DNA from: a virus
Lineage: Duplodnaviria; Caudoviricetes
Direction: 5' to 3' (one strand)
DNA length: 64,000 bases
IMG/VR virus record: IMGVR_UViG_3300008259_003073
Shown here: positions 12,692 through 61,280 of the stretch, piece after piece
Layout of the letters: each line of letters begins with the position of its first letter
Position numbering within the stretch: the first letter of the stretch is position 1
Notes under the pieces: generated by a model
What the model saw: only the letters and a program-made list of their open reading frames with translations
The model's database searches: none
Told to the model about the DNA's origin: nothing
Program-made: the position numbers and the translations under genes

Positions 12692-13792
12692 TTAGTTCAA
12701 CAGTTTCTTAAAAGTGGTTTCCATTTCCGAATAATCATTTAGGTATTCTATCAACTTATATCTATTTTCTATAGATTTTTCTAAAGAATGATTATATCTT
12801 TCTTCTATTTCATCATCTGATGTATTATATAACCATTCTGAAAACAGATTTATACTTCTTTCCACATCTTGGGCATTTGTTATATTTTGTACAAAATCAA
12901 AATTTAATAAATAAAATCCCATATTTTTAAGTTCATTTAATGTTTCACTACATGCTACTAAAATTATCGGTTTTCCAAAAAATAAACCCTTATATATTTT
13001 TTCTGTAATAAATCTTTCTGGATTATTTCTATAATCCAATGTCTCAAATATTAAATTATAATTACAATATACATAATCATTTATTGCTTCGAAATGTTTG
13101 TACTTTGGATATAACAAATCATACGCATCGTTTGCAGAATCTTTTGGATTTAACATTTTTTCAATTAAAGGATTATTATTAAGAATATCCATTCTCCAGC
13201 TACCAGTACGATGTGCTCTTATATATGAAAATAACTTTGATTTAGATTTATCATATTTAGGTAATGATATATTATTTACCAATTCTTCTAAATAATAATA
13301 TCCAATATAGTATCTGAAATATCTAAATGGAAATAACAAATCAAAATAAAAATTAGATTCCGTTTCCAGTATTGGTCTTTTTGACCCCGAAAGGATTAAA
13401 TCATAATTAATTTCCTGTACTCTTTTTACAAATGCAATATCAAATACTTCACCATAATGCCATATAAATACTTTTTTTATGTTTATATGATTGGTGTTTA
13501 ACTCAAATAGTTTATCCTCTAATAATTTATTTTCTAATTCTCCTGCAAATACTATACATCTATTAAATTTTTTAAAAAATTCAATTGGTTCTTTTATAAA
13601 ATTACTTAAATTGTTGTAAAAATATATTTTACTGTTTAGTTCTTTATGATAGTATATTTGCTTTTCAGAATTATCAAATTTTGTTGCATCAAATTCAGAT
13701 AAATAATCTACATTTTCTTTACCGAACATACCAAGCATTATTGGTAATTGGTTTGAATAAGTTATAAAAACCATTAGATTTTCCTCTATCAT
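12692..13792 (-). CDS. Putative GT-B glycosyltransferase with GT10-like motif (paralog)
   Basis: YNLIFETL..FITEKIYKGLFFGKPIILV..LKNMGF. Confidence 0.55.
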   Translation of the reverse strand: MIEENLMVFITYSNQLPIMLGMFGKENVDYLSEFDATKFDNSEKQIYYHKELNSKIYFYNNLSNFIKEPIEFFKKFNRCIVFAGELENKLLEDKLFELNTNHINIKKVFIWHYGEVFDIAFVKRVQEINYDLILSGSKRPILETESNFYFDLLFPFRYFRYYIGYYYLEELVNNISLPKYDKSKSKLFSYIRAHRTGSWRMDILNNNPLIEKMLNPKDSANDAYDLLYPKYKHFEAINDYVYCNYNLIFETLDYRNNPERFITEKIYKGLFFGKPIILVACSETLNELKNMGFYLLNFDFVQNITNAQDVERSINLFSEWLYNTSDDEIEERYNHSLEKSIENRYKLIEYLNDYSEMETTFKKLLN

Positions 13793-43001: not shown

Positions 43002-44699
43002 TTATATCTTACTTATTATGTAATTACCAATAACTAAATAATCCATATCACAATTTTTAAATGTGTTAACCGCAGTGTACGGGTCATTAACCATTGTTTG
43101 TCCTCTTAAATTAAAAGATGTATTCAATAGTATAGGTGTTCCACTTACTTTTTCAAATGCTTTTAACAATTCATAATACAGAGGATTTTGTTGACTTTTT
43201 ACCGTTTGAATTCGTGCACTATTATCTACATGAGTTACGGATGGGATTGGTATTTCGGAAATTACTTGTACAACCTGATTCATGTATGGAACATCTTCTT
43301 CTGATTTAAAGTATTGTTGATAATCTTCGTGAGTTACGGATGGAGCAAATGGTCTAAACATTTCCCTCTTTTTGACAACCTTATTTATCCTATCTCTAAC
43401 ATCTGGTAAATGTGGATTGGCTAAAATAGAACGATTACCTAATGCTCTTGCACCGAATTCAGTTCTACCTTGAAACCATCCTATGATATTACCTTCATTG
43501 ATTAACTCTGCGGTTTTATTTAATAACTCATCTGAATTTTTATAGTATTTAAACGATATATCTCCGATTCTATCTATAATGTTTAATACATATTCTTTAC
43601 TAAATTCGGGTCCTAAATATGGGGATTGGTTATCACCACCTTTTACTTTAGGATTTCCAATTACATCATGCCACACATATAAACATGCTCCAATTGCAGA
43701 ACCCGCATCAGATGGTGCGTATGGAATCCAAACATTTTTTATTGCACAATGTTTTTTTATTTTACCATTAGCAGTTCCATTATATGCACATCCTCCACCT
43801 AATACTAAATTTGAATTATCGGAATGACTGCATGAGTTATTGATAATATAATACAAACATCTCTCATACCATCGTTGTAAAGCAGCAGCTAAATCCATAT
43901 GATGTTGTTCTAATTTAGATTCAGGTTCACGTGGTTCAAATCCTATCAATTTAACCAAATCCAATGTAAACATATCCGTATTAGAATACTCCCATGTAAA
44001 ATACTTCTGATTTATATCAACCAAATTAACAGTATCCAATGATGCGAATGTATCAAATAATTCGTTATATTTTGAAGAATCTCCGTATGGAGCCAATCCC
44101 ATTACTTTGTACTCACCACTATTTGGTTTAAATCCCAAATATGAAGTTATAGTTGAATATATTAATCCCAATGAATTTGGGAATTTGACTGTTTTAATTT
44201 CAATAATACCATTTGAATTACATTCTGCAATGGATATGGTATCCCATTCACCAACCCCATCAATTGAAATTCCAATAGCTTTATCAAAAGGTGAGGTATA
44301 AAAAGATAAAGCCAAATGAGATAAGTGATGTTTTGTAAATGTAATTACTCCATCGTATCCAATAGCATCTTTTATATATTTTTTTAAATTACCTTGAGTT
44401 GCTTTAAATTCTTTTTTAAATTTATTCCAAGTTTTGAAATACTTAATCCATCTCTTTCCTAATGTCTTACTAACTCTATCATATTTGATATTTGGTACTT
44501 CATACCAACACACCATATCAACTTCATCTATTGTAATTTGTGCATGAGATAGACATGCTTCTATGGCCTTAAACGGAAAAGAGTTGTCGTGCTTTATACC
44601 CGACAACTTCTCTTCTTCTATTGCAAATACTACCTTACCATCTATAACTAATGCCGCAGCTGAATCGTGGTAAAATGCTGATAATCCTAATTGAATCAT
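43002..44699 (-). CDS. Carbamoyltransferase (NodU/CmcH family)
   Basis: YHDSAAAL, HHLSH, IDGVGE, EYKVMGLAPYG, GGCAYN, DAGSAIGA, EFGARALGNRS, FRPFAPSV, HVDNSARIQTV, LNTSFN. Confidence 0.95.
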   Translation of the reverse strand: MIQLGLSAFYHDSAAALVIDGKVVFAIEEEKLSGIKHDNSFPFKAIEACLSHAQITIDEVDMVCWYEVPNIKYDRVSKTLGKRWIKYFKTWNKFKKEFKATQGNLKKYIKDAIGYDGVITFTKHHLSHLALSFYTSPFDKAIGISIDGVGEWDTISIAECNSNGIIEIKTVKFPNSLGLIYSTITSYLGFKPNSGEYKVMGLAPYGDSSKYNELFDTFASLDTVNLVDINQKYFTWEYSNTDMFTLDLVKLIGFEPREPESKLEQHHMDLAAALQRWYERCLYYIINNSCSHSDNSNLVLGGGCAYNGTANGKIKKHCAIKNVWIPYAPSDAGSAIGACLYVWHDVIGNPKVKGGDNQSPYLGPEFSKEYVLNIIDRIGDISFKYYKNSDELLNKTAELINEGNIIGWFQGRTEFGARALGNRSILANPHLPDVRDRINKVVKKREMFRPFAPSVTHEDYQQYFKSEEDVPYMNQVVQVISEIPIPSVTHVDNSARIQTVKSQQNPLYYELLKAFEKVSGTPILLNTSFNLRGQTMVNDPYTAVNTFKNCDMDYLVIGNYIISKI

Positions 44700-44703
44700 A
44701 ATC

Positions 44704-45393
44704 TTAAATTTTTATGTCACCATCTCTTTCGAACTCATTATATAGTTCCATTTGTCTTTCTCTCATCTTATTAACAACTTTAGTAATATAATGAGTTGGG
44801 TGTCCTGTCATTTCTCTAATAAGTAGATATAATGATTTTTTATTAAAATTTTCTATGTATTCTGCTCTTCTAAATAATTCCAATACGGAATCTGCTATTT
44901 GTAAATCTCTTTTTTTAGGAAAGAAGTTTTCCAAATGTTTATCCCAATAGTTCAACATTACTACATTAAAAGTTCTATGGTCATCATTACGAACTTCTTC
45001 TGTAAAATTGTTTTCAGTATCCCAATGGTCTGGCATTGCAGACATTATATCGGTATCTTTGTATCTTTTGTAATTTGCGTTGTTATTTAAAATTAAATAA
45101 TTCCTAGCAACAATTGTAAAATACGAAAAGGCTTTACCCTTTCCATTTTTATACATATGAATCTTCTCAATCATAAACGCAACTACTTCACACATCACAT
45201 CCTGTGGGTCATCATCGAAATATGAAAACTTCCATTTGTTATAAACTATTTCTGCTAGTTTATCAAATGCAGGTTTAATTCTATCTCTATATAATAAATC
45301 TTTAACACGCTGATTATCCGATAGATTATATTCGATAATAGCTTGTTCCGTATCTGATGTAAAGTATTGTTTATTTTTGGCTTTTCTAGGCAT
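44704..45393 (-). CDS. Late-transcription sigma factor (T4 gp55-like)
   Basis: YFTSDTEQAIIEYN, AFDKLAE..KFSY, KAFSYFTIVARNYL parallels NPFAYFTQI region 2 of gp55-like proteins. Confidence 0.65.
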   Translation of the reverse strand: MPRKAKNKQYFTSDTEQAIIEYNLSDNQRVKDLLYRDRIKPAFDKLAEIVYNKWKFSYFDDDPQDVMCEVVAFMIEKIHMYKNGKGKAFSYFTIVARNYLILNNNANYKRYKDTDIMSAMPDHWDTENNFTEEVRNDDHRTFNVVMLNYWDKHLENFFPKKRDLQIADSVLELFRRAEYIENFNKKSLYLLIREMTGHPTHYITKVVNKMRERQMELYNEFERDGDIKI

Positions 45394-45639: not shown

Positions 45640-46287
45640 TTACACTATTTCATATCCTTGTAAAAAATAATTATTTGCTTTTTTGTATTTAACCTCAACC
45701 AGTTCACCAGTTGGTGATTTCATTACAATTTTATCATTTCTACCATAATTATTTTTCTTTACGATAGTTGTAGAATAAACCCTATCTTTAATAGTTATTC
45801 CATCTAAATGGTCAATTTCATGCTGAACGATAACAGTCATCATTGTTTCAATTGAAACTCTTTCATCAGCTTTATCTCCTTCTGGATTGATTTCAAATTC
45901 CAATTCTCCCAAATTATCAGTTTGAACTTTAATTTTACAAGACCTAATAGTTCGTAATGGGTTTTCAATGGTTTTAGGAATGGATAAACATCCTTCATAA
46001 AAAAGAAATCCTTCTTTAGACCGTTCTGTAATAACGGGATTCACTAAAAATAGTTCTCTACTATCTTCATCGTACCCAAACTTAATATAACATGCTCTTT
46101 TTTTAATACCCAATTGAGTTGCAGATATACCTAATCCTGGGTATTCGTTTAATCCATCTTTCAGAGTTTGTTCTAATTCATCTGCTTCTTTAGCAGTAAT
46201 TTCGGTTTTGGGGACGCGTGTTAAAAGAAACTCGCTAAATTCTTTAGATTGTAATCCGTTTGATGCTTTGTCTGTAATTAATTTCAT
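45640..46287 (-). CDS. def: Peptide deformylase with C-terminal extension
   Basis: GLGISATQ, EGCLS, QHEIDHLDG. Confidence 0.93.
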   Translation of the reverse strand: MKLITDKASNGLQSKEFSEFLLTRVPKTEITAKEADELEQTLKDGLNEYPGLGISATQLGIKKRACYIKFGYDEDSRELFLVNPVITERSKEGFLFYEGCLSIPKTIENPLRTIRSCKIKVQTDNLGELEFEINPEGDKADERVSIETMMTVIVQHEIDHLDGITIKDRVYSTTIVKKNNYGRNDKIVMKSPTGELVEVKYKKANNYFLQGYEIV

Positions 46288-46291
46288 ATTT

Positions 46292-46501
46292 TTATTTATT
46301 TTTAAGTCCGTATTTTATAAATTTATACCATATTCTTTCATGTAGAAAGTATTGTATGGGTTTGTACACTAATTCAACCACTCCGAAAGCAGCACCTATT
46401 TTAATAGAACCACTTATCCACCACATTATTAAGAATCCAATTAAAGTACTTACAATGCGGTATGAGATGGTTTTAGCTATGTGTCTTTTTACCTGTGGCA
46501 T
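46292..46501 (-). CDS. DUF2061-like small membrane protein
   Basis: RHIAKTISYRIVST..YFLHERIW. Confidence 0.8.
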   Translation of the reverse strand: MPQVKRHIAKTISYRIVSTLIGFLIMWWISGSIKIGAAFGVVELVYKPIQYFLHERIWYKFIKYGLKNK

Positions 46502-46838
46502 CTATTTCTCCATTTCTGATTGCAGTTCCACTAATTTCGGCTATATTTGTGGGTGGTTCGTGATAAATTACATCATACCCTACTCCTCTACCATAATTTA
46601 CTGATTCAATATCAGGAATAATTGATATATGAATTTTATCCCAATTATCAATAAAAAAAGATTCTTTAGTTAAATCTATCATAACCTGTTGAGCAGTTTT
46701 TGGATTATTCTCATCTGTTGGAACATCTCTAATTGCTAACCAAACATTTTTACCCTTTTCTAATTGTTGATTGATTAACCACTCATGTCCTTTGTGCCAA
46801 TTCTGCCATCTTCCGATGTATAGTGCGTATTTTTTCAT
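46473..46838 (-). CDS. Cytidylyltransferase-like (HIGH) nucleotidyltransferase
   Basis: IGRWQNWHKGH (HxGH), YGRGVGY, ISGTAIR (SxT/SxxR). Confidence 0.8.
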   Translation of the reverse strand: MKKYALYIGRWQNWHKGHEWLINQQLEKGKNVWLAIRDVPTDENNPKTAQQVMIDLTKESFFIDNWDKIHISIIPDIESVNYGRGVGYDVIYHEPPTNIAEISGTAIRNGEIDATGKKTHS

Positions 46839-50335: not shown

Positions 50336-50650
50336 TTACATAAAAAGTTTTTTCTTTGTTAGGATTTCATACAGAATTTCAACTTCTTCTTCAGTAGTTA
50401 ATTCAGGTAAATCATCATCAAATAATCGAACGGTGTAGATTGTGTTTCCGTTTTCATCAAAAAATTCATCAGATTCGGAACTGAATAATACTGGAGCAAA
50501 TTCTATATTTTCTATATCATCTTCATCTATATCTACCAATGGTATGACGTAATAATGGTAGGAATCTATACCATCTTCTACTTCTATTTTATGACACTTC
50601 CATCTATTGAAGCTATTTTCGGTTATTGGATTCTGCGGTAATATAATCAT
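50336..50650 (-). CDS. Acidic hypothetical protein
   Basis: 104 aa; promoter TTG-N20-TATATTTA at 50669-50699. Confidence 0.65.
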   Translation of the reverse strand: MIILPQNPITENSFNRWKCHKIEVEDGIDSYHYYVIPLVDIDEDDIENIEFAPVLFSSESDEFFDENGNTIYTVRLFDDDLPELTTEEEVEILYEILTKKKLFM

Positions 50651-50710: not shown

Positions 50711-51361
50711 TTATAATAATTTTTTACCATCTTCATTAAATAATGATGAGTATACATAATTAGCGAATTGTTTATGCCCAAGAAAACTTAAATGGTAATC
50801 TTCCATTTTACCTTTGGTAGCATCTTTTATATTCTGTGCGTGTGAATCCTCCCAAATAGTTTGTGTATAAAATTCAAAATATTTATAACATTTTATTATA
50901 GATTTTAAAAAATCATATCGTTTCTCGTGACGTTTACGATATACATCGTGTCCACTAAAGTAATATGAAAAATTAACAATAGTTTCATATTTTTCTTTAT
51001 TTTCAATTGTGGTCTTATAACCAGTATCGGATTTAATAACCTCACCACATACATTATAAAATTCATCTGGATTATGAGATGGTATATCAAATCTATATGA
51101 AAAAGTTTTATTAACAATTACAATATCGTTTTCCGAAATTGAATGATAATTATCTATTATCTTATCAAATATATAATCGTTAGATGCTCCACATTTTCCT
51201 AAATTATTTAATTTATAACCTAATTTATTAGCCAATATAACAGGCCAAATCAAATCATCATCTGATTTTTTATATTTTTTATAGTATTCATCTCCCTCAT
51301 AATTTGGTACACACCCGTGTCCAAAGGTCATTGAATCACCAAAAGTCCAAAGTGTTGCCAT
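50711..51361 (-). CDS. SGNH/GDSL-like protein
   Basis: WTFGDSMTFG, GKCGASN, DYHLSFLGH (DxH). Confidence 0.75.
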   Translation of the reverse strand: MATLWTFGDSMTFGHGCVPNYEGDEYYKKYKKSDDDLIWPVILANKLGYKLNNLGKCGASNDYIFDKIIDNYHSISENDIVIVNKTFSYRFDIPSHNPDEFYNVCGEVIKSDTGYKTTIENKEKYETIVNFSYYFSGHDVYRKRHEKRYDFLKSIIKCYKYFEFYTQTIWEDSHAQNIKDATKGKMEDYHLSFLGHKQFANYVYSSLFNEDGKKLL

Positions 51362-51364
51362 TAT

Positions 51365-52414
51365 TTAAATTAAAGGTTTTTCAGTTGTATATAAATGATG
51401 AAAATTATGTATTACATTTGGAATATTTTTAACTTTATCCAATTCTAACAAAAACGAATTATATTCAGCATGGTCTGGATTTGCTACATTTTTAATTTTA
51501 AATTCAGCTTCACTAAATGTACCCCAATCAGAAATCACATTGGTTCTAATATCCCATTTTACTTTAGTTTCTCTTTTATCCATATATGATTTAATCATTT
51601 TATAAAAATCGTACATTTCTTTATAATTAGTATCTTGCACTACAAATGAAAAAATATATTCTTTTATAGTTGGTATTTTTGTTATAAACTTTAAATTTTC
51701 ATGCAACACATCCCAATTACCTCCAATTCTAGTTTTAGTTTCGTATGTTTCTTTTGTAGCAGCATCTATTGAAATCTCACAAGTATTAACATAACGATGT
51801 ATACCATTCATTTTCTCCCACATTTCAGGAGTCCATAATGAACCATTTGTATGTAAATGAATTGATTTTAATTTTTTAAATCTATTTGAATCCAATGTAA
51901 TAAGAAACTGTCTGAATGATTTTGAGAAAAATGGGTCAGCTGAACCACTTAATACCAATCGTTCAACGAACGGTGATATTTCATCGTTAATTTCAGTTAG
52001 TTTTTTTTCTACGGATATTCGTTTACTACCTTTATAATTTATTAATTCAACCCTACAAGATGGGCATTGAAAATTACAGCTTCTATCAAATGTAAAATTA
52101 ATTATTTTAGGCCCCTTTGTTTTATGTAAATAATCAACATTTTCGGATGTATTGGGTATGAATTTAGAAGGTATTCTATTACTTTTAAAACTTGCTAAAT
52201 ATGGACACAAAAATTCATTACAGTATTTGTAACTACCATCAGTTACACTATCTCTTATTTTTTCAGAAATTTCAGAATTAAAACTATCCAATATCCCTTT
52301 ACCACTATTAATATCCGTACTTAACCAAGATGGACAACATAAAAATTGTTTATTATCTTCTACCTCTGTAAAGAAGAATGGAGTTGTGCATATATATTTT
52401 GATTTATCAATCAT
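51365..52414 (-). CDS. Radical SAM protein with N-terminal Cys cluster
   Basis: CNFQCPSC, SGSADPF, LHTNGSL; ICTTPF..LCCPSW. Confidence 0.88.
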   Translation of the reverse strand: MIDKSKYICTTPFFFTEVEDNKQFLCCPSWLSTDINSGKGILDSFNSEISEKIRDSVTDGSYKYCNEFLCPYLASFKSNRIPSKFIPNTSENVDYLHKTKGPKIINFTFDRSCNFQCPSCRVELINYKGSKRISVEKKLTEINDEISPFVERLVLSGSADPFFSKSFRQFLITLDSNRFKKLKSIHLHTNGSLWTPEMWEKMNGIHRYVNTCEISIDAATKETYETKTRIGGNWDVLHENLKFITKIPTIKEYIFSFVVQDTNYKEMYDFYKMIKSYMDKRETKVKWDIRTNVISDWGTFSEAEFKIKNVANPDHAEYNSFLLELDKVKNIPNVIHNFHHLYTTEKPLI

Positions 52415-52893
52415 ACTAATTTATTCTTTAATAAATCTTTACTTAAAAATGCAATTAGAGACCATCGTTCACCACTAGTAACCTCTGTTACTTCGTGTAA
52501 TCTACTACCATAAAAGGTATAGATATTTCCGGCAATTTTAGGTACAATAAATTTTGGATTATAGCAAATGAGTTCTCCTCCTTGATAATCATCATTTAAA
52601 CAAGCACCTATGTTATATAAACTATGTTTATCAATATGAGGTTCAAATTTATTTCCCTTTTGTACATTTTGTAAATGAATCACATTGAGTGGTTTATTCA
52701 ATGTGATGTTTGTATTCATTTTAAGATAGTTTAACAATCGTTCAAATATCCATTCAGTTATTTCATTTCTTTCTATATGCCAAGCAAAATAAATAGTTTC
52801 ATTACTTTCCCACCATTCATTTGATAAATGTTTTTGAAATAAATTTGATAATGATATTATTTCGTTACATTCTTCTTTTGTAAAGTTTATCAT
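52411..52893 (-). CDS. 2OG-Fe(II) oxygenase (prolyl-4-hydroxylase-like)
   Basis: FEPHID, LNDDYQGGEL, HEVTEVTSGERWSL. Confidence 0.88.
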   Translation of the reverse strand: MINFTKEECNEIISLSNLFQKHLSNEWWESNETIYFAWHIERNEITEWIFERLLNYLKMNTNITLNKPLNVIHLQNVQKGNKFEPHIDKHSLYNIGACLNDDYQGGELICYNPKFIVPKIAGNIYTFYGSRLHEVTEVTSGERWSLIAFLSKDLLKNKLV

Positions 52894-52929
52894 TATAAAA
52901 ATTATTTTTTTATTAAGTCAATCAGAACA

Positions 52930-53463
52930 CTATATTAGTGATTTATTTAATGCGAAATTATCAATTGATAACCAAAAAACAATACTATATCGTATACCAT
53001 CTTTAATTTTATTAACACTATGTTCGATAGATGAATCAAACATTATAACATTTCCAATTTCTTTTGAAGATACTATTGTATCATCATTGTGAAAAATACA
53101 TAATTCACCACCATCATAATCGGTTTCATTTGAAAGTTGTATTATTAAAGTTTTATATCTGTTTGGATATTCAATGCCTGAATCGGTATGTCTTTTGAAC
53201 TCTTGATTTTTATCATATTTCAGAATTATAAAAAAATCAGGTAAATTTTTTATTTCAAATTCTTTCAACTTTTCTAACATCATATTTGATAAATTATGTG
53301 TTAGCTCTATAGTTAACTCACTTGAAGTTCTATGTTCTGATATAACATCAATATTACTATATCCTGTTACTTTACTGCGTTTGAATGATTCATCATCAGA
53401 TAATGATTTAAAGTAATGACAATCATCTTTATTGAATAATTTTTTTTGAATAATAGATTGCAT
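52930..53463 (-). CDS. 2OG-Fe(II) oxygenase (PKHD/prolyl-4-hydroxylase-like)
   Basis: FKRHTD, QLSNETDYDGGEL, HSVNKIKDGIRYSIV. Confidence 0.88.
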   Translation of the reverse strand: MQSIIQKKLFNKDDCHYFKSLSDDESFKRSKVTGYSNIDVISEHRTSSELTIELTHNLSNMMLEKLKEFEIKNLPDFFIILKYDKNQEFKRHTDSGIEYPNRYKTLIIQLSNETDYDGGELCIFHNDDTIVSSKEIGNVIMFDSSIEHSVNKIKDGIRYSIVFWLSIDNFALNKSLI

Positions 53464-53464
53464 C

Positions 53465-53941
53465 TTACATTAATTTTGGTTCTCTAACTCTCTCGTATGC
53501 TAATATCATACCAACTAACCAATCCGATGTTAATGTATCTCTTTCGTGAAATATTTTACTTCCTTCGAATATTACCCCATCACCTTGTTCTAAAATTATT
53601 TCAACTTTTTCACCACCAATCCAAAGATATAAAGGACTTGCAATTGTATCAGATTGTTTAATTAAAACACTAATAACAAGTTCACATACATCTTTGTGCT
53701 TGTGAAGTTTTTGTCCTTTAAGTGATTTTCTAGTATACCCTAAAACGGTATTTACTTTGGTTGAATAAAATTTTTCAACTTCTATTTTTAATTTTTCGGT
53801 ATACCTATCAGATATTTCCCATTTATGTACTATATCAGAATCTTTAACTAGCCAATCTTTTTTCTTTTCTAGTTTTTCAAATTCAGAAAAAATGAATTCA
53901 CATTCATCTAACGATAAAGCATTTTTAAGTATTTTATACAT
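53465..53941 (-). CDS. 2OG-Fe(II) oxygenase
   Basis: LHKHKD, GDGVIFEGSKIFHER. Confidence 0.8.
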   Translation of the reverse strand: MYKILKNALSLDECEFIFSEFEKLEKKKDWLVKDSDIVHKWEISDRYTEKLKIEVEKFYSTKVNTVLGYTRKSLKGQKLHKHKDVCELVISVLIKQSDTIASPLYLWIGGEKVEIILEQGDGVIFEGSKIFHERDTLTSDWLVGMILAYERVREPKLM

Positions 53942-53943
53942 AA

Positions 53944-54525
53944 TTAAATTAAATCTTTATCTTCGATTTTAAAATCAACAAAAGGTTCATTTACATTAAG
54001 TAGTGTATGTATTTTTTTATACATTTCATAACACCCCTTTGGTCCAGGATGGTCATCTCGTTTTTCACCAGCACCTTCTTGCCAATTTGAACTAACTTGT
54101 ATTAAGGATACAAAATCTTCTGTACCCTTATTAAAAGTTTCATTCCAAGTAACAAATACTGGATTATACTCCTTTAGTAAAGTTTGAAGTTTTTTAAAAA
54201 ATTTTATTTCATTATTTCTCTCACCATCTAACCATCGATAGTGTTCATCTACTTTCAAACAAGCTAATTTATTTATTAAATTACCATTTGCATAAAATCG
54301 AGTAGGTATTCTACCAGGTTCGGTAAACATAATCAAAACTCTATCCCCAGGCTCAAATTCTGGTAAATCTCCTAATTGAAATATTATGGAGTTATTATCT
54401 GACCCACGCACCGCGAATTTGTAAAATTCGTAATGGTGTGACAGATAATATGTCCAATGGTATTTCGGAATATCAAAATCAACGAATGAATCTCCAAAAC
54501 AAAATAACCTAGGTTTCATAATCAT
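53944..54525 (-). CDS. SGNH/GDSL-like protein
   Basis: FCFGDSF, RGSDN, DDHPGPKG. Confidence 0.75.
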   Translation of the reverse strand: MIMKPRLFCFGDSFVDFDIPKYHWTYYLSHHYEFYKFAVRGSDNNSIIFQLGDLPEFEPGDRVLIMFTEPGRIPTRFYANGNLINKLACLKVDEHYRWLDGERNNEIKFFKKLQTLLKEYNPVFVTWNETFNKGTEDFVSLIQVSSNWQEGAGEKRDDHPGPKGCYEMYKKIHTLLNVNEPFVDFKIEDKDLI

Positions 54526-54530
54526 TTGTA

Positions 54531-54683
54531 TTACAAATGTTTTGCAATAAATAATTCAAAAAATTTATTAACTACAAGTTGAACTCTTCCCTTTTCTTCT
54601 GGTGTTAATTGAGATGTAGTTCTATTATTGACAGCATTTAATGCCTTTTTTTTGTACAACGGCGGGTGGTTGGTTATGTTCAT
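54531..54683 (-). CDS. Small basic hypothetical protein (50 aa)
   Basis: Hand translation MNITNHPPLYKKKALNAVNNRTTSQLTPEEKGRVQLVVNKFFELFIAKHL*; fills gap exactly. Confidence 0.6.
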   Translation of the reverse strand: MNITNHPPLYKKKALNAVNNRTTSQLTPEEKGRVQLVVNKFFELFIAKHL

Positions 54684-54702
54684 GATTATTTATTTTTATT
54701 TA

Positions 54703-57000
54703 TTATGCATTAATACTTGTTTGATAAAACTCTTGTCTTTTAAAAGTTTTATTTAGTAATTCATTATCTCCTAAACCGGAAACTATAAAATCCTCTACTA
54801 TAAAGTTATGTTCACTTTCAAATAAAACATCACCATCTATTTCCAAATTATAAAAGTTATCTACATATTGAATACCAAGTTCAACACCTTTTGCTTCACA
54901 AATTGGTTTCCATTCTCCATTATCATAGAATGGATGTAATCTATCGGAAATCATTCCCTTATATTTTACAACTTCAACAACATCATTGGTAGGATGTGGT
55001 ATTTTATCAGTTACAACACCTCTTACATATTCACCATTTTTATAACTCAAAACATAATCACCAATCTCAATGTCTACTATGTTTTTAAAACTACCATCTT
55101 CCATTTTTACTTTAGTATCGGCAGTGAAACACGAAGGTGGACGTAGGTTATGAACTAACACATTATTTGCAAAATAATTGTGATATGTTTCAATTTCTGA
55201 TAAGTTGTATACGATAGTAGATTCTTCTACTATATTTACATTAATCAATTTAACATCTCCATTATGTAACTTTACAACATCACCGATTTCTATTTTTTCT
55301 ACTTCTATTTTTTTAACAGGCTTAATTCCTTCAAATGAATCATCATTATATTGTTCTGGTTCACCTAAATAGTTAACCCATCCCTTATTGATGACGTAAA
55401 TTGGATGGTCTAATGTTGCTTTTAAAATACTTCCATCTGAAAATTCATATTCAACAATCTTATCAATTTGTTTAGAAAAAGTATTTAAAACTTTACTAAC
55501 TTTTGGTTCGTTATTTTTTAAATCAAATGAAACTACATAATCACCTACAACTACATCTTCGATATTTTTTGTAAGTCCATTTTCTAACAAAATTTGTGTA
55601 CCTGCAACGAAGCAAGGTGCGTTATGAGAAACTACTGAATTGAATGCAGTAGAACCACTTATAATATAGGTATCGGTATCTTCAACATCTAATTCTATAT
55701 AAGTTAAATTATTGTCGGTAGATACATAAAAATTTAATTCATCTATATCAATTAGATTACCATTGGCATCGTATAAATAATCTACTTCAGGATTTATATT
55801 ATATATTTCTTTAAATGAACTTGCATTAGAGCTAGAATCAAAAATTAAAAACGATTTTGCTATTCCAGAGAAAAGAGAATCATCATCTACTTTTAATTCA
55901 AACATACTATTATATTTTAAGTTTTCATACTTTTTATAAATTACAATAGATGATGTTAAGTATGAACCAATTGGAAACTCATTTGTTGGAAAACTATAAT
56001 TAGTATCCGTCTCCTCTTCAACAGAACGAGATATATAATAAGATTTTACATAATCACCCACAACAAACTCTGATATAGGTTTGTAAGTATTTTCATCAGT
56101 TAGTATTTGGTGAGTTGATAGTATTCCTGCTGAATCATTTTTGAATAAGTTAGTTGTAAACTCATAGTAGTGATAATCGGCTATTTTATTTGTATATTGA
56201 TTTTCAACTACTTCAGAACTTAAATCGGTTGGTAAGTCAAATATTGAACTAATTTTATAAGTATGTAAATTTACTACTTCTAAATTAGAGCCATATACTA
56301 TTCCAAAAAATCTATAAGATGTTATGTGGTTATTATCATCTACATTAGATGGGTGAAAATGATATTGCTCTATTAACTTATCTTCTGCTGCGTTTTCACT
56401 AATAAAGTTATTCCATCTATCTTCTGATGATTCGTTTTCAGTTTGAAAACCTATTTTAAAGAAATCAATTGGATTATGAATTTCATTCACATCCTTTATA
56501 GTTACATCTGGTATATTGTTTGGGTTTATCTCATTTGTAAGAGTGTTTTTTTCACCAAATGATGATGAATGATAATATGAAATAGAATAATCATTTATAG
56601 AATTATCCGTAAATAAATTAAAAACATTTAATCTATTTTTACAGTATTCACTATCAAACAGAGCAGATTCATCATACGCTAATCTCAAAATAAATTTATT
56701 ATCAGAATCCTCAACTTGTGTTGGGTATATTGTACCATTACTTTCTTTATGTAAATTTATAACGGTTGTATCTGATGATAGAGAAGATGTAAGTTGGTTT
56801 ACAAATTTTTGATGAATATCTGGTTTATAGATAATATCTAATTCAGAGATACTATTATCTACAAGTATTTGGTTAAAATCAGAAAAATCAAAATTAACTA
56901 ATTCCTGATTTATAAATCCAGTATCAGTATTTAATTCTAATAATCTCAAATTACCAGTTGAGTCTTTTACAAAATCTGCGGAAAATAGTGTTCCTTTCAT
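54703..57000 (-). CDS. Circularly permuted ATP-grasp-like domain fused to three tandem Hint domains
   Basis: N-terminal SADF..LRLLELNTDTG, VTIKD, LIEQY, SYRFF; Hint1 aa292-460 (G..HN), Hint2 aa463-618 (CF..TLDH..HN), Hint3 aa624-742 (CF..LH..SG). Confidence 0.8.
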   Translation of the reverse strand: MKGTLFSADFVKDSTGNLRLLELNTDTGFINQELVNFDFSDFNQILVDNSISELDIIYKPDIHQKFVNQLTSSLSSDTTVINLHKESNGTIYPTQVEDSDNKFILRLAYDESALFDSEYCKNRLNVFNLFTDNSINDYSISYYHSSSFGEKNTLTNEINPNNIPDVTIKDVNEIHNPIDFFKIGFQTENESSEDRWNNFISENAAEDKLIEQYHFHPSNVDDNNHITSYRFFGIVYGSNLEVVNLHTYKISSIFDLPTDLSSEVVENQYTNKIADYHYYEFTTNLFKNDSAGILSTHQILTDENTYKPISEFVVGDYVKSYYISRSVEEETDTNYSFPTNEFPIGSYLTSSIVIYKKYENLKYNSMFELKVDDDSLFSGIAKSFLIFDSSSNASSFKEIYNINPEVDYLYDANGNLIDIDELNFYVSTDNNLTYIELDVEDTDTYIISGSTAFNSVVSHNAPCFVAGTQILLENGLTKNIEDVVVGDYVVSFDLKNNEPKVSKVLNTFSKQIDKIVEYEFSDGSILKATLDHPIYVINKGWVNYLGEPEQYNDDSFEGIKPVKKIEVEKIEIGDVVKLHNGDVKLINVNIVEESTIVYNLSEIETYHNYFANNVLVHNLRPPSCFTADTKVKMEDGSFKNIVDIEIGDYVLSYKNGEYVRGVVTDKIPHPTNDVVEVVKYKGMISDRLHPFYDNGEWKPICEAKGVELGIQYVDNFYNLEIDGDVLFESEHNFIVEDFIVSGLGDNELLNKTFKRQEFYQTSINA

Positions 57001-57043
57001 AATGCTTTTTTTATATGTGTATTCTTATATAAATATGATTGTT

Positions 57044-57634
57044 TTAAATTAAACTTCTTTTTGATTTAACATCAATTACATTTCGTAATCTATTTCTATT
57101 ATCTAAAAGAGAATGAGAATTTATTTTTTGAATCCCCAAATAATGAGTTAACCTATTAATATCCTCATTACCTTGATATATGTTCTCATATGATACCATT
57201 AATTCAATTTGGGGTATATTAGATATTATCTCTTTATATTTCTGCAATCTAGATTCCTCCTCTTTGATTTCTTTTTCATTTTCTATTAACCATTGATTAG
57301 ATATTTCATAGCATTCTCTCCAAGTAATAGAATTTGAAGATAGTGCCCAATAATGTGATATTGCACACTCTTGTATATCGTTTCGTATTAACCCAATGAC
57401 CTTATCCCAATTACTCCAATTGAATGTATCTAATTCATTTTCTATTTCACTAATCAAATACTTTACTACTATATTGTTTTTATTTTTTTCCAATAACCTG
57501 ATTTTATAGATACTCAACATATCAAAATTATCTTTTGTTGGTTCATGAATAGTTTGATATTTTTTTTCTGAACCTATCCAATTAAGTAAAGAATACCCAC
57601 CACTTCTACCCATCGCGATTATTAGTATTCTCAT
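57044..57634 (-). CDS. Sulfotransferase-like P-loop protein
   Basis: ILIIAMGRSGG, IHEP, LIRNDIQECAISH, VSYENIY. Confidence 0.65.
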   Translation of the reverse strand: MRILIIAMGRSGGYSLLNWIGSEKKYQTIHEPTKDNFDMLSIYKIRLLEKNKNNIVVKYLISEIENELDTFNWSNWDKVIGLIRNDIQECAISHYWALSSNSITWRECYEISNQWLIENEKEIKEEESRLQKYKEIISNIPQIELMVSYENIYQGNEDINRLTHYLGIQKINSHSLLDNRNRLRNVIDVKSKRSLI

Positions 57635-57650
57635 ATTTACAAAATTGAAA

Positions 57651-58151
57651 TTAAATAACTGAATGTAGTATTAACTCATGTAATCCTTCAACGATTCCGT
57701 AATCTTTACTATCTACCCAAAAATGTAATTTTGAATGGCTTCCAAAGTTAGATTTCAATTTATTCTTTTCAGAATGACCCGACATTGTAATCATATCAAT
57801 GGAATTATCTACACAATACTTCGCACAATTCAATATGTTTTTTGAATTACCAGATGATGATATTAGTATTACCAATGTATCTCCTTCTACAAAATGTTCT
57901 AAAAACATCTGATATGCATTATCCCAACCGTAATCATTCGCATAACAACTCATTCTAGGTGTATCACCAAATGTAATTGTTTTAATTCCCAACATTTTAT
58001 GGTAATCTTCGGCTATGTGTAACGCAACCGCATTACTTCCACCATTACCCAATATAATGATATTACTATGATGGCGTATTAAGTTATTTAATGTTGCTAA
58101 TTTACCTGTCTCTATTTCAGCTAAACATTTTTTATATTCTTGTAAATTCAT
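57651..58151 (-). CDS. SIS-domain sugar-phosphate isomerase (GmhA-like)
   Basis: IILGNGGSNAVALHIAED, ANDYGW, ISSSGNSKNI, YGIVEGLH. Confidence 0.85.
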   Translation of the reverse strand: MNLQEYKKCLAEIETGKLATLNNLIRHHSNIIILGNGGSNAVALHIAEDYHKMLGIKTITFGDTPRMSCYANDYGWDNAYQMFLEHFVEGDTLVILISSSGNSKNILNCAKYCVDNSIDMITMSGHSEKNKLKSNFGSHSKLHFWVDSKDYGIVEGLHELILHSVI

Positions 58152-58158
58152 ATATTCT

Positions 58159-58395
58159 TTATAAATTTTCTACACTATTCCATTTTTTTAAATCACAACT
58201 ACCCATAACAGGTGTGAATATCTTTTTACCTAATGGGCATCCACACTCACCGCATATCTCTGTAAATACTACGGAAGGAGTTCTTGATGGACAAGTTTGA
58301 CAAATAGTGTATCGTTTTCCGGCTAATGTAGTTTGTTCGGGAGTTGGATTTGCCGCTCTTCTCCAACTTAAAAATATCTCTGATGCTTTATTCAT
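58159..58395 (-). CDS. Small Cys-rich (zinc-binding?) protein
   Basis: RYTICQTCP..ICGECGCPL..SCDLKKW. Confidence 0.7.
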   Translation of the reverse strand: MNKASEIFLSWRRAANPTPEQTTLAGKRYTICQTCPSRTPSVVFTEICGECGCPLGKKIFTPVMGSCDLKKWNSVENL

Positions 58396-58694
58396 AAAGA
58401 TTTCACTATATCATTGATTCGTTTACATTGCTCAAAGAGTTCAAAATCTATCATTCTCTGATGTATCCAATCTAATATCGAACTATACTCCTCCTTCTTA
58501 ACAGTAACGTATGCAGGTACTCCTTCAAATCTAAATATAACTAACTCTTTAGTTCCTTTGATTTTTTTGAAAATTTCGATTAAATCAATAATCTTAACCA
58601 TCTGCTCCGCCGTCATTTCTATTTTACAAATATAATCTTTCCAATCTAATTGGATATAACTTTTTTCTAAACTAGATAAAACCTTGGCGTTCAT
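58392..58694 (-). CDS. Hypothetical protein
   Basis: 100 aa ORF downstream of promoter 58719-58749. Confidence 0.65.
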   Translation of the reverse strand: MNAKVLSSLEKSYIQLDWKDYICKIEMTAEQMVKIIDLIEIFKKIKGTKELVIFRFEGVPAYVTVKKEEYSSILDWIHQRMIDFELFEQCKRINDIVKSL

Positions 58695-58718
58695 ACAGAT
58701 GTAAATGATTAGAGTATA

Positions 58719-58797
58719 ACAATATACTAATAATTATTAAATTTTCCAAAATAATCGATGAAATACTTGTTTTTTATTTCGGAATTTCGTACATTGT
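58719..58797. promoter_or_regulatory. Back-to-back divergent primary-sigma promoters
   Basis: Minus TTTG-N20-TATATTGT (58719-58749); plus TTG-N20-TACATTGT (58767-58797); marks the strand switch. Confidence 0.7.
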
Positions 58798-58819
58798 GAT
58801 TGTAATAAAGATACCCTAT

Positions 58820-58966
58820 ATGAAAAACGAAACAGATATTCTAATAAAAATATCAGAGTTAGAACTTGCACTCTCAAAAGAGATGAAACTCGATATCTTA
58901 CACGATATTAATATATTAAAAATACAAACTCAAATCGATACTCTTAATTGGGTATTAGAAAAATAA
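58820..58966 (+). CDS. Small hypothetical protein (48 aa)
   Basis: Hand translation MKNETDILIKISELELAL...IDTLNWVLEK*. Confidence 0.65.
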   Translation: MKNETDILIKISELELALSKEMKLDILHDINILKIQTQIDTLNWVLEK

Positions 58967-58978
58967 TTACGAAAGTAC

Positions 58979-59009
58979 TTGGAATTGCGAAAAGTTTTTC
59001 GTAGATTAG
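58979..59009 (+). promoter_or_regulatory. Early promoter
   Basis: TTG-GAATTGCGAAAAGTTTTTCG-TAGATTAG; near-identical to 59901-59931. Confidence 0.75.
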
Positions 59010-59047
59010 TAGAGTAATAAGAAATGAACCTTTAACCCCCCTTAATT

Positions 59048-59377
59048 ATGAATTACCTTATTGACCCCCAAAGTTTAGTGTTCAACTCTCATAGAGTTAG
59101 TGGTTTCACCAAAATGGTTGGTGATGAGCATATCCCACAATGGGATTTGTTGGAAGTAGCAACCGAAGTTGCTGAAGAATGGACAGATGATTGGCCTGAA
59201 GACCAAGGATTTGGTTCATCTGATGGAACTTATATGATGAAAGATTTCATCGATAATGTGATTTGGAGATATGCTAGTGGTAGATTGATGACCAAATTTA
59301 CTCCATCACTTTCGATAGTGGAGTATTCGGAAGCCGAATATCACAATAGAGTTCAACGAATGGAAAGCGGACTATAA
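59048..59377 (+). CDS. Acidic hypothetical early protein
   Basis: 109 aa ORF after promoter. Confidence 0.7.
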   Translation: MNYLIDPQSLVFNSHRVSGFTKMVGDEHIPQWDLLEVATEVAEEWTDDWPEDQGFGSSDGTYMMKDFIDNVIWRYASGRLMTKFTPSLSIVEYSEAEYHNRVQRMESGL

Positions 59378-59378
59378 T

Positions 59379-59639
59379 ATGAGAAAGACAGAATTCTTTA
59401 AAAACTATGGTGGAGCATTAGTTGCTATAACCGCCGATGATGCAGAGTATGGTGATTTCCTACTACTTCATCCAGAAGAAATAGAAATGGCAAAAGTATA
59501 TGAAAGTTTAGGTTGTACTATCGTATCCGTACATGAAATGGAAGATGGTGATGATGATATTGATATGAATCAGCCCTGTGATTATGGTAACCAACCATTT
59601 AAAATTGGATACTTTGCATTAGATAACCCAAACTTTTAA
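59379..59639 (+). CDS. Acidic hypothetical early protein
   Basis: 86 aa, 1-nt gap to previous ORF. Confidence 0.7.
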   Translation: MRKTEFFKNYGGALVAITADDAEYGDFLLLHPEEIEMAKVYESLGCTIVSVHEMEDGDDDIDMNQPCDYGNQPFKIGYFALDNPNF

Positions 59640-59661
59640 TTAACCAAATCCCCTAAATTAT

Positions 59662-59877
59662 ATGTATAATTACAGAACTCTCTCTAAATCCCAACTTATC
59701 GAATTGGTAAACGGAATTGAATCCACTCTTTCGAATTCAATCTACACTGCGGAAAAAGAAGCAAAAGAGTATTCCACCGAACTACCATCCCAACTGGCAT
59801 TTGAAGTTGGGTATTTCAAAGGGTATGTTAAAACCGTACTATCTCTAATTGAAGAATACAAAAATTGTTCAAAATAA
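59662..59877 (+). CDS. Hypothetical early protein
   Basis: 71 aa, QLAFEVGYFKG. Confidence 0.7.
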   Translation: MYNYRTLSKSQLIELVNGIESTLSNSIYTAEKEAKEYSTELPSQLAFEVGYFKGYVKTVLSLIEEYKNCSK

Positions 59878-59900
59878 TTTTAAAATATTTTCACAAACCC

Positions 59901-59931
59901 TTGGAATTACGAAAAGTTTTTCGTACATTTA
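59901..59931 (+). promoter_or_regulatory. Early promoter
   Basis: TTG-GAATTACGAAAAGTTTTTCG-TACATTTA. Confidence 0.75.
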
Positions 59932-59969
59932 TAAAGTAATAAGAGATAACCCCTAAAACCCCTAACAAA

Positions 59970-60500
59970 ATGAGTAAGAAAATCAAAATCCAAATCAGTA
60001 ACCAAACTTTCGAACTTCCTTCCAACGCATTGTGGTTCGATAAGTGGAAGAACGAACCATACATCAATATGAATGCGAAGAACACCGCATCTCTTATCAA
60101 ACAATTTGTGAAGAAAAACTTCCCTAATATAAAAGTGTGGGCAACCTCTGATGTATATAGTGGAGGTTCTTCGGTAAGAGTAAATGTTTCCAACTCCGAT
60201 GGTTCATCCGTATCGGAAAAAATTTACAAAGAAATCAAAGGATTTTCAGATTCCTTTAAAGCTGGATACTTCGATGGTATGAGTGATTGTTATGAGTACT
60301 ACGATGAGAAATTAAAAACAGATAATGGTACTTCCTTAAAATCCTTCCCCTCTTATATCTTCGTAGAGAATAAGGCAACTTGGGGTTCGGTAGAGTACTG
60401 GGTAAATGAAATTAAGAACGAGGGTAGAACCTTGGAACAAGAAATTACTTATATGAAAGCTGGTATGAAAGATAAAGTAGTAGCAGCACTTTCTATGTAA
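59970..60500 (+). CDS. LPD29-like (large polyvalent protein-associated domain) protein
   Basis: ASLIKQFVKKNFPNIKV..YSGGSSVRV..GYFDGMSDCY. Confidence 0.7.
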   Translation: MSKKIKIQISNQTFELPSNALWFDKWKNEPYINMNAKNTASLIKQFVKKNFPNIKVWATSDVYSGGSSVRVNVSNSDGSSVSEKIYKEIKGFSDSFKAGYFDGMSDCYEYYDEKLKTDNGTSLKSFPSYIFVENKATWGSVEYWVNEIKNEGRTLEQEITYMKAGMKDKVVAALSM

Positions 60501-60576
60501 TAAATAACGATTAAAACGGTGTAAGACTTCATAGGTAATGAAAGATACTCGAGCAACCGTATAGTTATTTTTTCAA

Positions 60577-60613
60577 TCGGCGGGGGTTGGGGGGCCTCCG
60601 TCGAACTTTTTTT
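60577..60613 (+). terminator. Rho-independent terminator
   Basis: TCGGCGGGGG-TTGGGGGG-CCTCCGTCGA then ACTTTTTTT. Confidence 0.8.
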
Positions 60614-60644
60614 AAGAAAAATTTTTTATATCCCAATTGATAGT

Positions 60645-61280
60645 TTATAACAATTTCACTTTGTTATTTACAACATACTCATAATACTCCCTATCTCCCC
60701 TCATTAAGGTAAGCATCCTCTCCCATTGAATTGGATATTCACTCTTTACCATTTCTACAATCCACTCTTTCGATTTCCAATCTTCAATGTGATGGAAACT
60801 ATATTCATCTTTAATATACTCTATATCCCATCCCAATTTAGCTAGGAACTCCGTAGTTTCCGTAATTTGTAGAATCTTAAACCGTTTGATATTATGGTTC
60901 TTATATAGAAAGTGTATTTTTTTAAAAAATGAACCACTCCAATGAGTAGTACCAGTAGGTGAAGCAAATTCATCCACTATTGAACTCACCTTTTCCGTAT
61001 CCGAGTAGCAACTAACCAATTCCGTATGCAATGCACTTTGTAACCATTCATACGGGTCTCTCACCACTAACCATTCTACACCCTTCCACAAATCGTAATC
61101 CTCAATTCGGGATGGTGTTCCTTCTACCGTTTGTGTAATATCCGATTGTTGGGGTAAACACGATACAATCCGTTCCATGTACCCGACTTGCCGTTCGGCC
61201 GATTTCACACATTTAGAAAAATAACGAGTTCCACATTTTGCGGGTACGGCGATATTCCTATTGAATATCTCTATTACCAT
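60645..61280 (-). CDS. Sulfotransferase-like protein (Sulfotransfer_2-type motifs)
   Basis: VPAKCGTRYF (5'-PSB-like), VVRDPYEWLQSA (3'-PB-like), HW. Confidence 0.7.
   Translation of the reverse strand: MVIEIFNRNIAVPAKCGTRYFSKCVKSAERQVGYMERIVSCLPQQSDITQTVEGTPSRIEDYDLWKGVEWLVVRDPYEWLQSALHTELVSCYSDTEKVSSIVDEFASPTGTTHWSGSFFKKIHFLYKNHNIKRFKILQITETTEFLAKLGWDIEYIKDEYSFHHIEDWKSKEWIVEMVKSEYPIQWERMLTLMRGDREYYEYVVNNKVKLL

Follow-up and report, generated by a model that had tools for sequence, protein, structure and literature searches.

Enzymes of several unrelated folds, encoded by an uncultured myovirus-type phage from water and by hundreds of its relatives, end in the same short C-terminal tail, in which lysines precede two aliphatic residues (hereafter, the tag). 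The phage is represented by the IMG/VR virus record IMGVR_UViG_3300008259_003073, and "the window" refers to the whole stretch of 64,000 nucleotides analyzed here, which is AT-rich (∼30% GC). The tagged proteins include 2-oxoglutarate (2OG)-Fe(II) oxygenases, a radical S-adenosylmethionine enzyme (rSAM), SGNH hydrolases, and sulfotransferase-like proteins, and an untagged protein with ATP-grasp-like and Hint domains is encoded among them (Table 1). The tag is far more frequent than chance allows, and it is kept by selection on the protein. On balance, it is probably a C-terminal docking label that brings the enzymes to a common partner.

The Tag in the Window

Genes were called as the longest ORFs (open reading frames) rather than with a trained gene finder; the C-terminus is independent of the choice of the start codon, so the protein ends are unaffected by this procedure. 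When the last two residues were scored for L-[ILVM], 10 of the 61 ORFs in the window matched, against a frequency of 1.7% inside the same proteins (binomial P = 7e-8). With an additional K or R at position −3 or −4, nine of the 61 ORFs matched, against 0.42% internally (binomial P = 5e-12). This motif was defined post hoc on the window, i.e., the P values are upper bounds on significance, and independent sequences provide the proper test. Six of the tagged genes are consecutive, from position 54525 down to 50711 on the minus strand. A first-pass annotation had named nine ORFs with such ends and had set them against structural genes without them. Our simple ORF call found all nine on the minus strand with the C-termini quoted, and the untagged structural-gene ends (RFDT, KLDF, TYVQ, LEVE, NINN, KRFK, LSKT, KINF, and EDWF) were also correct. 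The tenth match to the dipeptide, at 4347–5777 (LSVLL), looks like chance because its family is tagged in 1/15 cases.

Conservation of the Tag in Related Phages

The independent sequences came from close relatives in IMG/VR, which include rSAM orthologs at 90–99% identity, from four related phage genomes (G001–G004), and from two sets of loci: 80 centered on rSAM, and 76 centered on 497-aa homologs of the ATP-grasp/Hint protein and fetched independently of rSAM. Pelagibacter phage HTVC008M, which has a GC content of 33% and a similar gene packing, was used as a control phage without the tag. The baseplate wedge protein is ∼40% identical to those of Microcystis phage Mel-JY01, Flavobacterium phage immuto, and a 484-kb metagenomic phage.

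Across nine related viral contigs, the orthologs retain the ending even where the remaining tail has diverged. The rSAM tails change from EKPLI to EKTLI and KSPLI, and orthologs of the 2OG oxygenase at 52411–52893 end in SKLL, NKLL, KKIF, or KGLI. Homologs of the oxygenase at 52930–53463, at 30–32% identity, end in TKTLI and KSKLL, and a homolog of the sulfotransferase-like protein at 60645–61280, at 24% identity, ends in KVRLI. The first-pass annotation had allowed that orthologs in related phages might lack the tail; they keep it, down to 24–32% identity.

The ending is also conserved in larger families. All 120 rSAM homologs listed (50–99% identity) end in [LIF][ILF], 93 of them in LI, and [LI][ILVMF] terminates 98 of the 102 database homologs in the SGNH family (50711–51361). 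In the sulfotransferase-like family (57044–57634), the same pattern was found in 86 of 120 full-length representatives that are ≤ 50% identical to one another, and many of the others end in VI, FI, or MI. When these three families were collected from large protein databases, the entropy over the last ten residues was minimal at −1 and −2 in each; in rSAM, it was 0.41 and 0.71 bits at the last two residues versus 2.0–3.1 bits at −3 to −8. Among smaller families, all five distinct tails are tagged in that of the second SGNH-like protein (53944–54525), as are four of five in that of 60645–61280, and the INKLL end of 10153–11475 is retained in its 85%-identical ortholog in G004. The protein at 53465–53941 (EPKLM) was a singleton in the clustering, i.e., its tail is without backing from relatives. 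In the family of 58159–58395, 9 of 15 distinct tail forms elsewhere are tagged (e.g., NKTII and KNSLI); the window copy ends in VENL, which shows that a single lineage can evidently lose the tag.

A consensus was derived from 307 distinct tails, of which 65% terminate in I, 21% in L, 8% in F, and 5% in V. Position −2 is L in 70% and I in 30%, the restriction to L or I being imposed by the definition of the collection itself. Position −3 is occupied by S (24%), K (24%), T (18%), or N (12%), and lysine accounts for 45% at −4 and 25–32% at −5 to −7. In whole related genomes, the tag was in 2- to 2.7-fold excess over the background. A six-residue scoring matrix, trained on loci that overlap the scored genomes, gave a 4- to 7-fold excess (10 ends versus 1.4 expected in G004, and 18 versus 3.2 in G001). 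HTVC008M showed no such excess. As for the spread of the system, the rSAM family has 1,456 database homologs, and 194 stretches of viral contigs encode the central ATP-grasp/Hint protein.

The Tagged Genes in a Conserved Operon

In the 80 rSAM-centered loci, 509 of 1,444 ORFs are tagged, and individual families tend to be tagged either in ∼90–100% of their members or in ∼0%. The families with at least four members (n = 70) are bimodal: 23 are tagged in at least 50% of cases and 42 in < 10%. The tagged genes of the relatives form a conserved operon around the untagged ∼497-aa ATP-grasp/Hint protein. The operon starts with the cofactor-supply genes of the island, all untagged, which encode adenosine phosphosulfate (APS) kinase, its small cytidylyltransferase-like neighbor, and a DUF2061 membrane protein. 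These are followed by two 2OG oxygenases, a Trp halogenase, two 2OG-like proteins, a sulfotransferase, a ∼100-aa protein, and then the ∼497-aa protein, beyond which lie an SGNH hydrolase, a 2OG oxygenase, a sulfotransferase-like protein, and rSAM, and finally glycosyl- and methyltransferases and a collagen-repeat fiber gene. Within the 76 loci, the tagged fraction is 71–100% at the positions from −5 to +4 relative to the ATP-grasp/Hint gene (70/70 at −3 and 74/74 at −2), and the tagged fraction from eight genes away is 5–31%, mostly < 25%. The central protein is the sole consistently untagged member of the block. Its gene in the window (54703–57000) sits between a tagged sulfotransferase-like gene and the run of six tagged genes, in the middle of the interval covered by the first-pass annotation, which overlooked that the tag marks a compact operon built around it.

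The APS kinase, the weakly cytidylyltransferase-like protein (∼120 aa), and the DUF2061 membrane protein (70 aa) accompany rSAM even in phages without a large tagged block (L017, L020, and L044). In the window, positions 46292–46838 hold the cytidylyltransferase-like and DUF2061 genes, and an APS kinase gene was not found in the window.

Protein-Level Origin of the Tag

A by-product of the DNA, i.e., an AT-rich translational coupling junction or a recombination scar at a cassette boundary that happens to encode K, L, and I, is largely excluded as the origin of the tag. Many tagged genes do overlap the next start as ATGA, as the stop of the 2OG gene at 52411–52893 overlaps the start of rSAM, and A-ending codons are mildly enriched at the tail (ATA, 67% vs. 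42%; TTA, 72% vs. 59%), a shift that is expected because of this overlap. However, the tail draws on all Leu codons (TTA, TTG, CTT, CTA, CTC, and CTG), on every Ile codon, and on each of the three stop codons, and the tagged fraction is not tied to the distance to the next gene (45% for overlapping genes, 42% within 5 nt, 29% at 6–30 nt, and 42% at 31–100 nt). The gene at 60645–61280 is tagged although the next gene is convergent, so no start codon follows, and the tightly packed structural operons of the same genomes are untagged. In HTVC008M, despite its similar GC content and packing, ends of the L-[ILVM] type amount to 7/180, which equals the internal background of 3.8%. Therefore, codon diversity, independence from gap length, and the control genome together show that AT bias and translational coupling are not the explanation, and a recombination scar was rejected on the same evidence. 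The AT-rich codon bias that the first-pass annotation had raised as a possible cause thus does not explain the motif.

Acquisition on Unrelated Folds

The tagged folds comprise double-stranded beta-helix oxygenases, radical SAM enzymes, SGNH hydrolases, sulfotransferase-like proteins, a flavin-dependent Trp halogenase, and a GT9-like transferase. The tag is absent from all of 17 bacterial rSAM homologs (30–35% identity; Brocadia, Mesorhizobium, Phenylobacterium, and others), a 2OG homolog in cyanophage S-CAM7 ends in GPELR, and HTVC008M encodes fourteen 2OG oxygenases, a halogenase, and two carbamoyltransferases, all untagged. An inherited feature of the enzyme families was rejected on these grounds. 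Because the outside homologs are untagged, many families must have gained the tail inside a single group of uncultured phages, in agreement with the convergent acquisition on unrelated folds proposed in the first-pass annotation. The rSAM, sulfotransferase-like, and ATP-grasp/Hint proteins had no tblastn match among 50,697 deposited phage records. No tractable isolate with the tag was found; in the first 50 kb of Flavobacterium phage immuto, 3 of 84 ends are tagged, which is background only.

A Proposed Docking Label and Its Candidate Reader

In a modeled 2OG enzyme (family alignment; mean predicted local distance difference test [pLDDT], 87.5), the fold ends near residue 173, and residues 174–182 are coil, in which the pLDDT falls from 64 to 42. 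Such a low-confidence coil over the last nine residues fits an exposed linear motif. In the mechanism that we propose, K/N-x-[LI]-[ILF]-COOH, usually after more lysines, would be a short linear motif at the free C-terminus that labels the tailoring enzymes of one compact phage peptide- or protein-modifying operon (several unrelated 2OG oxygenases, rSAM, SGNH hydrolases, and sulfotransferases, with the Trp halogenase in relatives). The tail would lie on a flexible linker outside the fold of each enzyme, and its terminal carboxylate, together with the two aliphatic side chains, would be recognized in a binding pocket of one shared partner; otherwise dissimilar enzymes would thereby be gathered at the same place or substrate. 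The data fit a recognition label that marks the late-acting enzymes of one tailoring pathway and leaves the cofactor-supply enzymes unmarked. The pathway itself would act on peptides or collagen-like fibers.

The most likely partner would be the untagged ATP-grasp-like/Hint protein (54703–57000), the N-terminal domain of which appears to resemble ligases that grip peptide C-termini. We infer that, if the reader is encoded in the operon, this protein is the only candidate, because it is the sole untagged protein there and, as modeled, belongs to a fold class that acts on peptide C-termini. When a 497-aa relative was modeled (pLDDT, 69), the C-terminal half matched inteins, Hedgehog, and BIL domains (Foldseek E ∼1e-7), and the N-terminal half matched the Escherichia coli ATP-grasp ligases YjfC and YgiC (Foldseek E, 7e-5 to 2e-4). 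The latter two enzymes are cited in PMC12568646 as peptide-spermidine ligases. Throughout the ATP-grasp/Hint family, an E-x-N motif is invariant, as are many charged residues, and the protein is encoded in all four related genomes. No significant match emerged when the sequence of the central protein was searched against solved structures (a TPR-like match had E = 0.46). The co-fold of the ATP-grasp-like domain (alignment A2, residues 1–325) with a tagged 2OG enzyme (A3) scored 0.20 against a mark of 0.32, and was counted neither way.

Most relatives of the central protein (L044:6469–7962 and L141–L217) have a ∼30-aa Cys/Trp/Tyr/Pro-rich peptide after a VMHN|C junction, which consists of CWCPWNYCGHWCNSxYCPxC, a variable Gly/Pro stretch, and then K-[LIV]-COOH. 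This peptide looks like a precursor or core peptide. The window copy is without it and ends after further Hint domains. A bolder form of the docking label, which we put forward tentatively, is a reversed leader-peptide system: by binding the K-x-L-I-COOH tails, the ATP-grasp-like domain might gather about ten unrelated tailoring enzymes at the Cys/Trp/Tyr/Pro-rich, Hint-flanked peptide of its own C-terminus, as a phage-encoded, self-scaffolding peptide-modification factory.

Several points weigh against the docking label. Co-location in the operon is a correlation, and the operon enzymes are simply the tagged class; the genomes of G001 and G002 have their tagged genes dispersed, not beside the ATP-grasp/Hint gene, so proximity is not universal. 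The ATP-grasp assignment comes from the medium-quality model above, with modest TM-scores (TMq, 0.27–0.30; TMt, 0.33–0.37). A basic-then-aliphatic tail is likewise reminiscent of a ClpX degron and of a weak membrane anchor, and in one sulfotransferase-like homolog, a C-terminal transmembrane helix takes the position of the tag.

Readers of other kinds were also searched for. The first-pass annotation had suggested a PDZ-type reader gene; the PDZ_2 model (PF13180), the sole PDZ model used, had no match in G001–G004, in a search that covered these phage genomes and not host genomes and in which control genomes were positive. Peptidase_S41, the family of tail-specific proteases, was absent from G001–G004. 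Comparative genomics yielded 41 ortholog groups common to G001, G002, and G004 and absent from HTVC008M, too many to single out a reader and mostly structural. A clamp-binding motif of the T4 gp45/beta-clamp type was rejected, as the gp43-like polymerase of G001 ends in EKFFSF, unlike the tag.

Alternative Interpretations

A C-terminal degron, through which a host AAA+ protease (ClpXP, or FtsH or Lon, which prefer apolar ends) would limit the lifetime of the enzymes, is in our view unlikely, although it comes next to the docking label. The composition of the tail would suit a degron, with lysines at −4 to −7 before the terminal [LI][ILF], and the model predicts an exposed, disordered tail. The closest resemblance in sequence to K-K-x-L-I is in fact the "C-motif 2" of MuA (RRKKAI-COOH, with KKAI resembling the tag), which is reportedly recognized by ClpX and likewise has basic residues before an aliphatic end. 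Of the four related phage genomes, one encodes a full-length ClpP-family protease (G003:C1:106334–106861, in L121; E = 5e-58), and the other three do not. However, two complete related genomes are without ClpP, and Leu at −2 is far stricter than a generic apolar end requires. MuA tails lead to unfolding or degradation, and neither Leu at −2 nor spread over an operon is a feature of that class. There is also no obvious reason why late-pathway enzymes alone, and not the adjacent cofactor-supply enzymes, should be unstable.

The tail might instead be a substrate motif, the terminal carboxylate of which is activated by the ATP-grasp ligase of the operon and joined to an amine, for example, that of a polyamine, of an amino acid, or of a lysine in a different protein. 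This we regard as improbable. The modeled resemblance of the N-terminal domain to YjfC/YgiC, which act on peptide C-termini, would suit such a reaction, as would the invariant E-x-N motif and charged residues, and the Cys/Trp-rich tail of the central protein itself ends in K-[LIV]-COOH. Against this, the fold assignment of the ATP-grasp domain is weak, and we know of no precedent for a ligase that modifies ten different enzymes of its own operon.

We give similarly little credence to a weak anchor, in which the lysines and two aliphatic residues would keep the enzymes on the inner membrane face, or at another negative surface, near a lipid-linked or envelope substrate. The composition, basic and then hydrophobic, is compatible with this, the island encodes the small DUF2061 membrane protein, and a GT9 heptosyltransferase-like protein is tagged. 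Furthermore, of two sulfotransferase-like homologs (P0225 and P0318; family of 57044–57634), one has the transmembrane helix noted above and the other is fused to a sequence that looks bactofilin-like by eye; these are single cases, and the transmembrane replacement is one case in 363 homologs. Two residues offer a very small hydrophobic surface, and in rSAM there is no room for an amphipathic helix, because the chain ends just six residues beyond the fold. The strict need for the last two positions points rather to a protein pocket that recognizes the carboxylate.

Comparison With Known Systems

C-terminal address tags on unrelated eukaryotic proteins are textbook knowledge, and include the peroxisomal targeting signal PTS1, KDEL, and the tripeptide of the machinery for iron-sulfur assembly in the cytosol (CIA). 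PTS1 (SKL-COOH), KDEL, the cargo-loading peptides of encapsulins, and dockerins resemble the tag in that one C-terminal address occurs on many unrelated enzymes, but their consensus does not fit, and the phage genes have no link to a peroxisome, endoplasmic reticulum, encapsulin shell, or cohesin partner. PTS1 is [SAC]-[KRH]-[LM]-COOH and is read by the TPR domain of Pex5; the enzyme tails have L or I at −2 and mostly I at −1, and an SKL end occurs sometimes, solely in the untagged ATP-grasp/Hint protein. The cargo-loading peptides of encapsulins are Gly/Ser-rich and of the L-x-I-G-S-L-K type. The phage tails are unlike these, and no encapsulin family came up when a subset of the block proteins was scanned with Pfam and NCBIfam, no direct search having been made.

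Class I PDZ ligands (x-[S/T]-x-hydrophobic-COOH) share with the tag the free C-terminus and the aliphatic last residue, and 42% of the phage tails have Ser or Thr two before the last residue. However, K or N is about equally common there (S, 24%; T, 18%; K, 24%; N, 12%), i.e., the Ser/Thr preference of the class is not seen, and PDZ_2 had no match in the four genomes. Bacterial PDZ proteins are mostly periplasmic, and the enzymes in question need cytoplasmic cofactors. The leader peptides and recognition elements of ribosomally synthesized and post-translationally modified peptides also bring several tailoring enzymes to one precursor. The hypothetical arrangement proposed above would differ in its reversed polarity: each enzyme would carry the short peptide, and the precursor-like protein the large domain.

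To our knowledge, nothing comparable has been described for a bacterial or phage biosynthetic pathway, and our literature search found no paper on this motif. According to PMC10245660, eukaryotic cytosolic Fe-S proteins are recognized by the CIA targeting complex through a C-terminal tripeptide, [LIM]-[DES]-[WF]-COO−. The likeness lies in a very short motif at the extreme C-terminus of unrelated enzymes and one common reader complex; the CIA motif differs in being acidic-then-aromatic and eukaryotic, with a known reader, whereas the phage tag is basic-then-aliphatic and its clients include non-metalloenzymes (SGNH hydrolases and sulfotransferases). Arrays of dioxygenase, Trp halogenase, sulfotransferase, and phosphoadenosine phosphosulfate (PAPS)-synthesis genes beside tail-collar or collagen-like genes were described by Iyer et al. 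(2010; PMC2938197), who predicted that they modify peptides or collagen-like fibers. Our phages have the same enzyme repertoire and predicted role: the window encodes three 2OG-type and two sulfotransferase-like proteins, and relatives add APS kinase, the Trp halogenase, and the adjoining collagen-repeat fiber gene. However, PMC2938197 reports no shared C-terminal motif, the cultured phages HTVC008M and S-CAM7 are untagged, and a paper on the host-recognition cluster of pelagimyophages (PMC7029224) does not mention a shared tail.

If the docking label is correct, it represents a new way to organize multi-enzyme pathways, it would provide a four-residue handle for the recruitment of enzymes in engineered systems, and pathway membership could be read from sequence in uncultured phages. 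The tag is widespread and simple enough for tests with peptides and point mutants.

Other Ends and Neighboring Genes in the Window

The enzyme names in Table 1 differ in their support. Those given in the first-pass annotation for rSAM and two 2OG oxygenases are backed by Pfam; the third 2OG protein rests on a PHROG match, the SGNH proteins on the GDS motif and on Lipase_GDSL matches of a family relative, and the sulfotransferase-like proteins on language-model neighbors (scores, 0.96–0.97). The KKKLFM end of 50336–50650 is likely a variant of the tag.

Table 1. Coordinates, ends, and basis of assignment of tagged and associated genes in the window.
Position	Strand	Product	Length (aa)	C-terminal end	Basis or remark
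10153–11475	−	Protein of the glycan island (putatively GT10-like)	440	INKLL (candidate tag)	C-terminus
50336–50650	−	Protein	104	KKKLFM (relatives, KKKLFI)	Absent from the first-pass list
50711–51361	−	SGNH/GDSL-like hydrolase	216	GKKLL	N-terminal FGDS motif; family relative matches Lipase_GDSL/DUF6071
51365–52414	−	Radical SAM enzyme	349	EKPLI	Pfam Radical_SAM
52411–52893	−	2OG-Fe(II) oxygenase	160	KNKLV	Pfam 2OG-FeII_Oxy_3
52930–53463	−	2OG-Fe(II) oxygenase	177	NKSLI	Pfam
53465–53941	−	2OG-like protein	158	EPKLM	phrog_2954 match alone
53944–54525	−	Second SGNH-like protein	193	DKDLI	N-terminal FGDS motif
54703–57000	−	ATP-grasp-like N-domain and Hint domains	765	TSINA (untagged)	Pfam Hint families; model of relative
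57044–57634	−	Sulfotransferase-like protein	196	KRSLI	Language-model neighbors with Sulfotransfer_3/1
58159–58395	−	Protein	78	VENL (untagged here)	Family membership
60645–61280	−	Sulfotransferase-like protein	211	KVKLL	Language-model neighbors with Sulfotransfer_2

Beside the tagged block are encoded a peptide deformylase (45640–46287) and a SIS-domain, sugar isomerase-like protein (57651–58151), both without K-x-L-I. The deformylase end, GYEIV, is lysine-free, and we take it as a chance match to the loose dipeptide; the SIS-domain protein ends in HSVI. The ORF at 14519–19759 encodes a tail-fiber protein of 1,746 aa with a C-terminal Peptidase_S74 intramolecular chaperone domain, and is a candidate substrate of the modifying enzymes; its counterpart in the relative L044 carries collagen repeats. 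The KKLLN(R) ends of 12692–13792 and of this fiber were checked as possible tags, and the fiber end lies in the Peptidase_S74 domain and is not a tag. Isoleucine or leucine is the terminal residue in 23 of the 61 ORFs in the window, and untagged ORFs often end in [KSN]-I, as in 1459–2874 (STIKI), 6131–7588 (HQIKI), and 44704–45393 (GDIKI); further ends of this type are those of 43002–44699 (IISKI), 7603–8451 (KIISI), and 11444–12427 (YISNI). Alongside the K-[LIV] ends in relatives of the central protein, there may be a weaker second C-terminal preference, K-[IL]-COOH, in the window.

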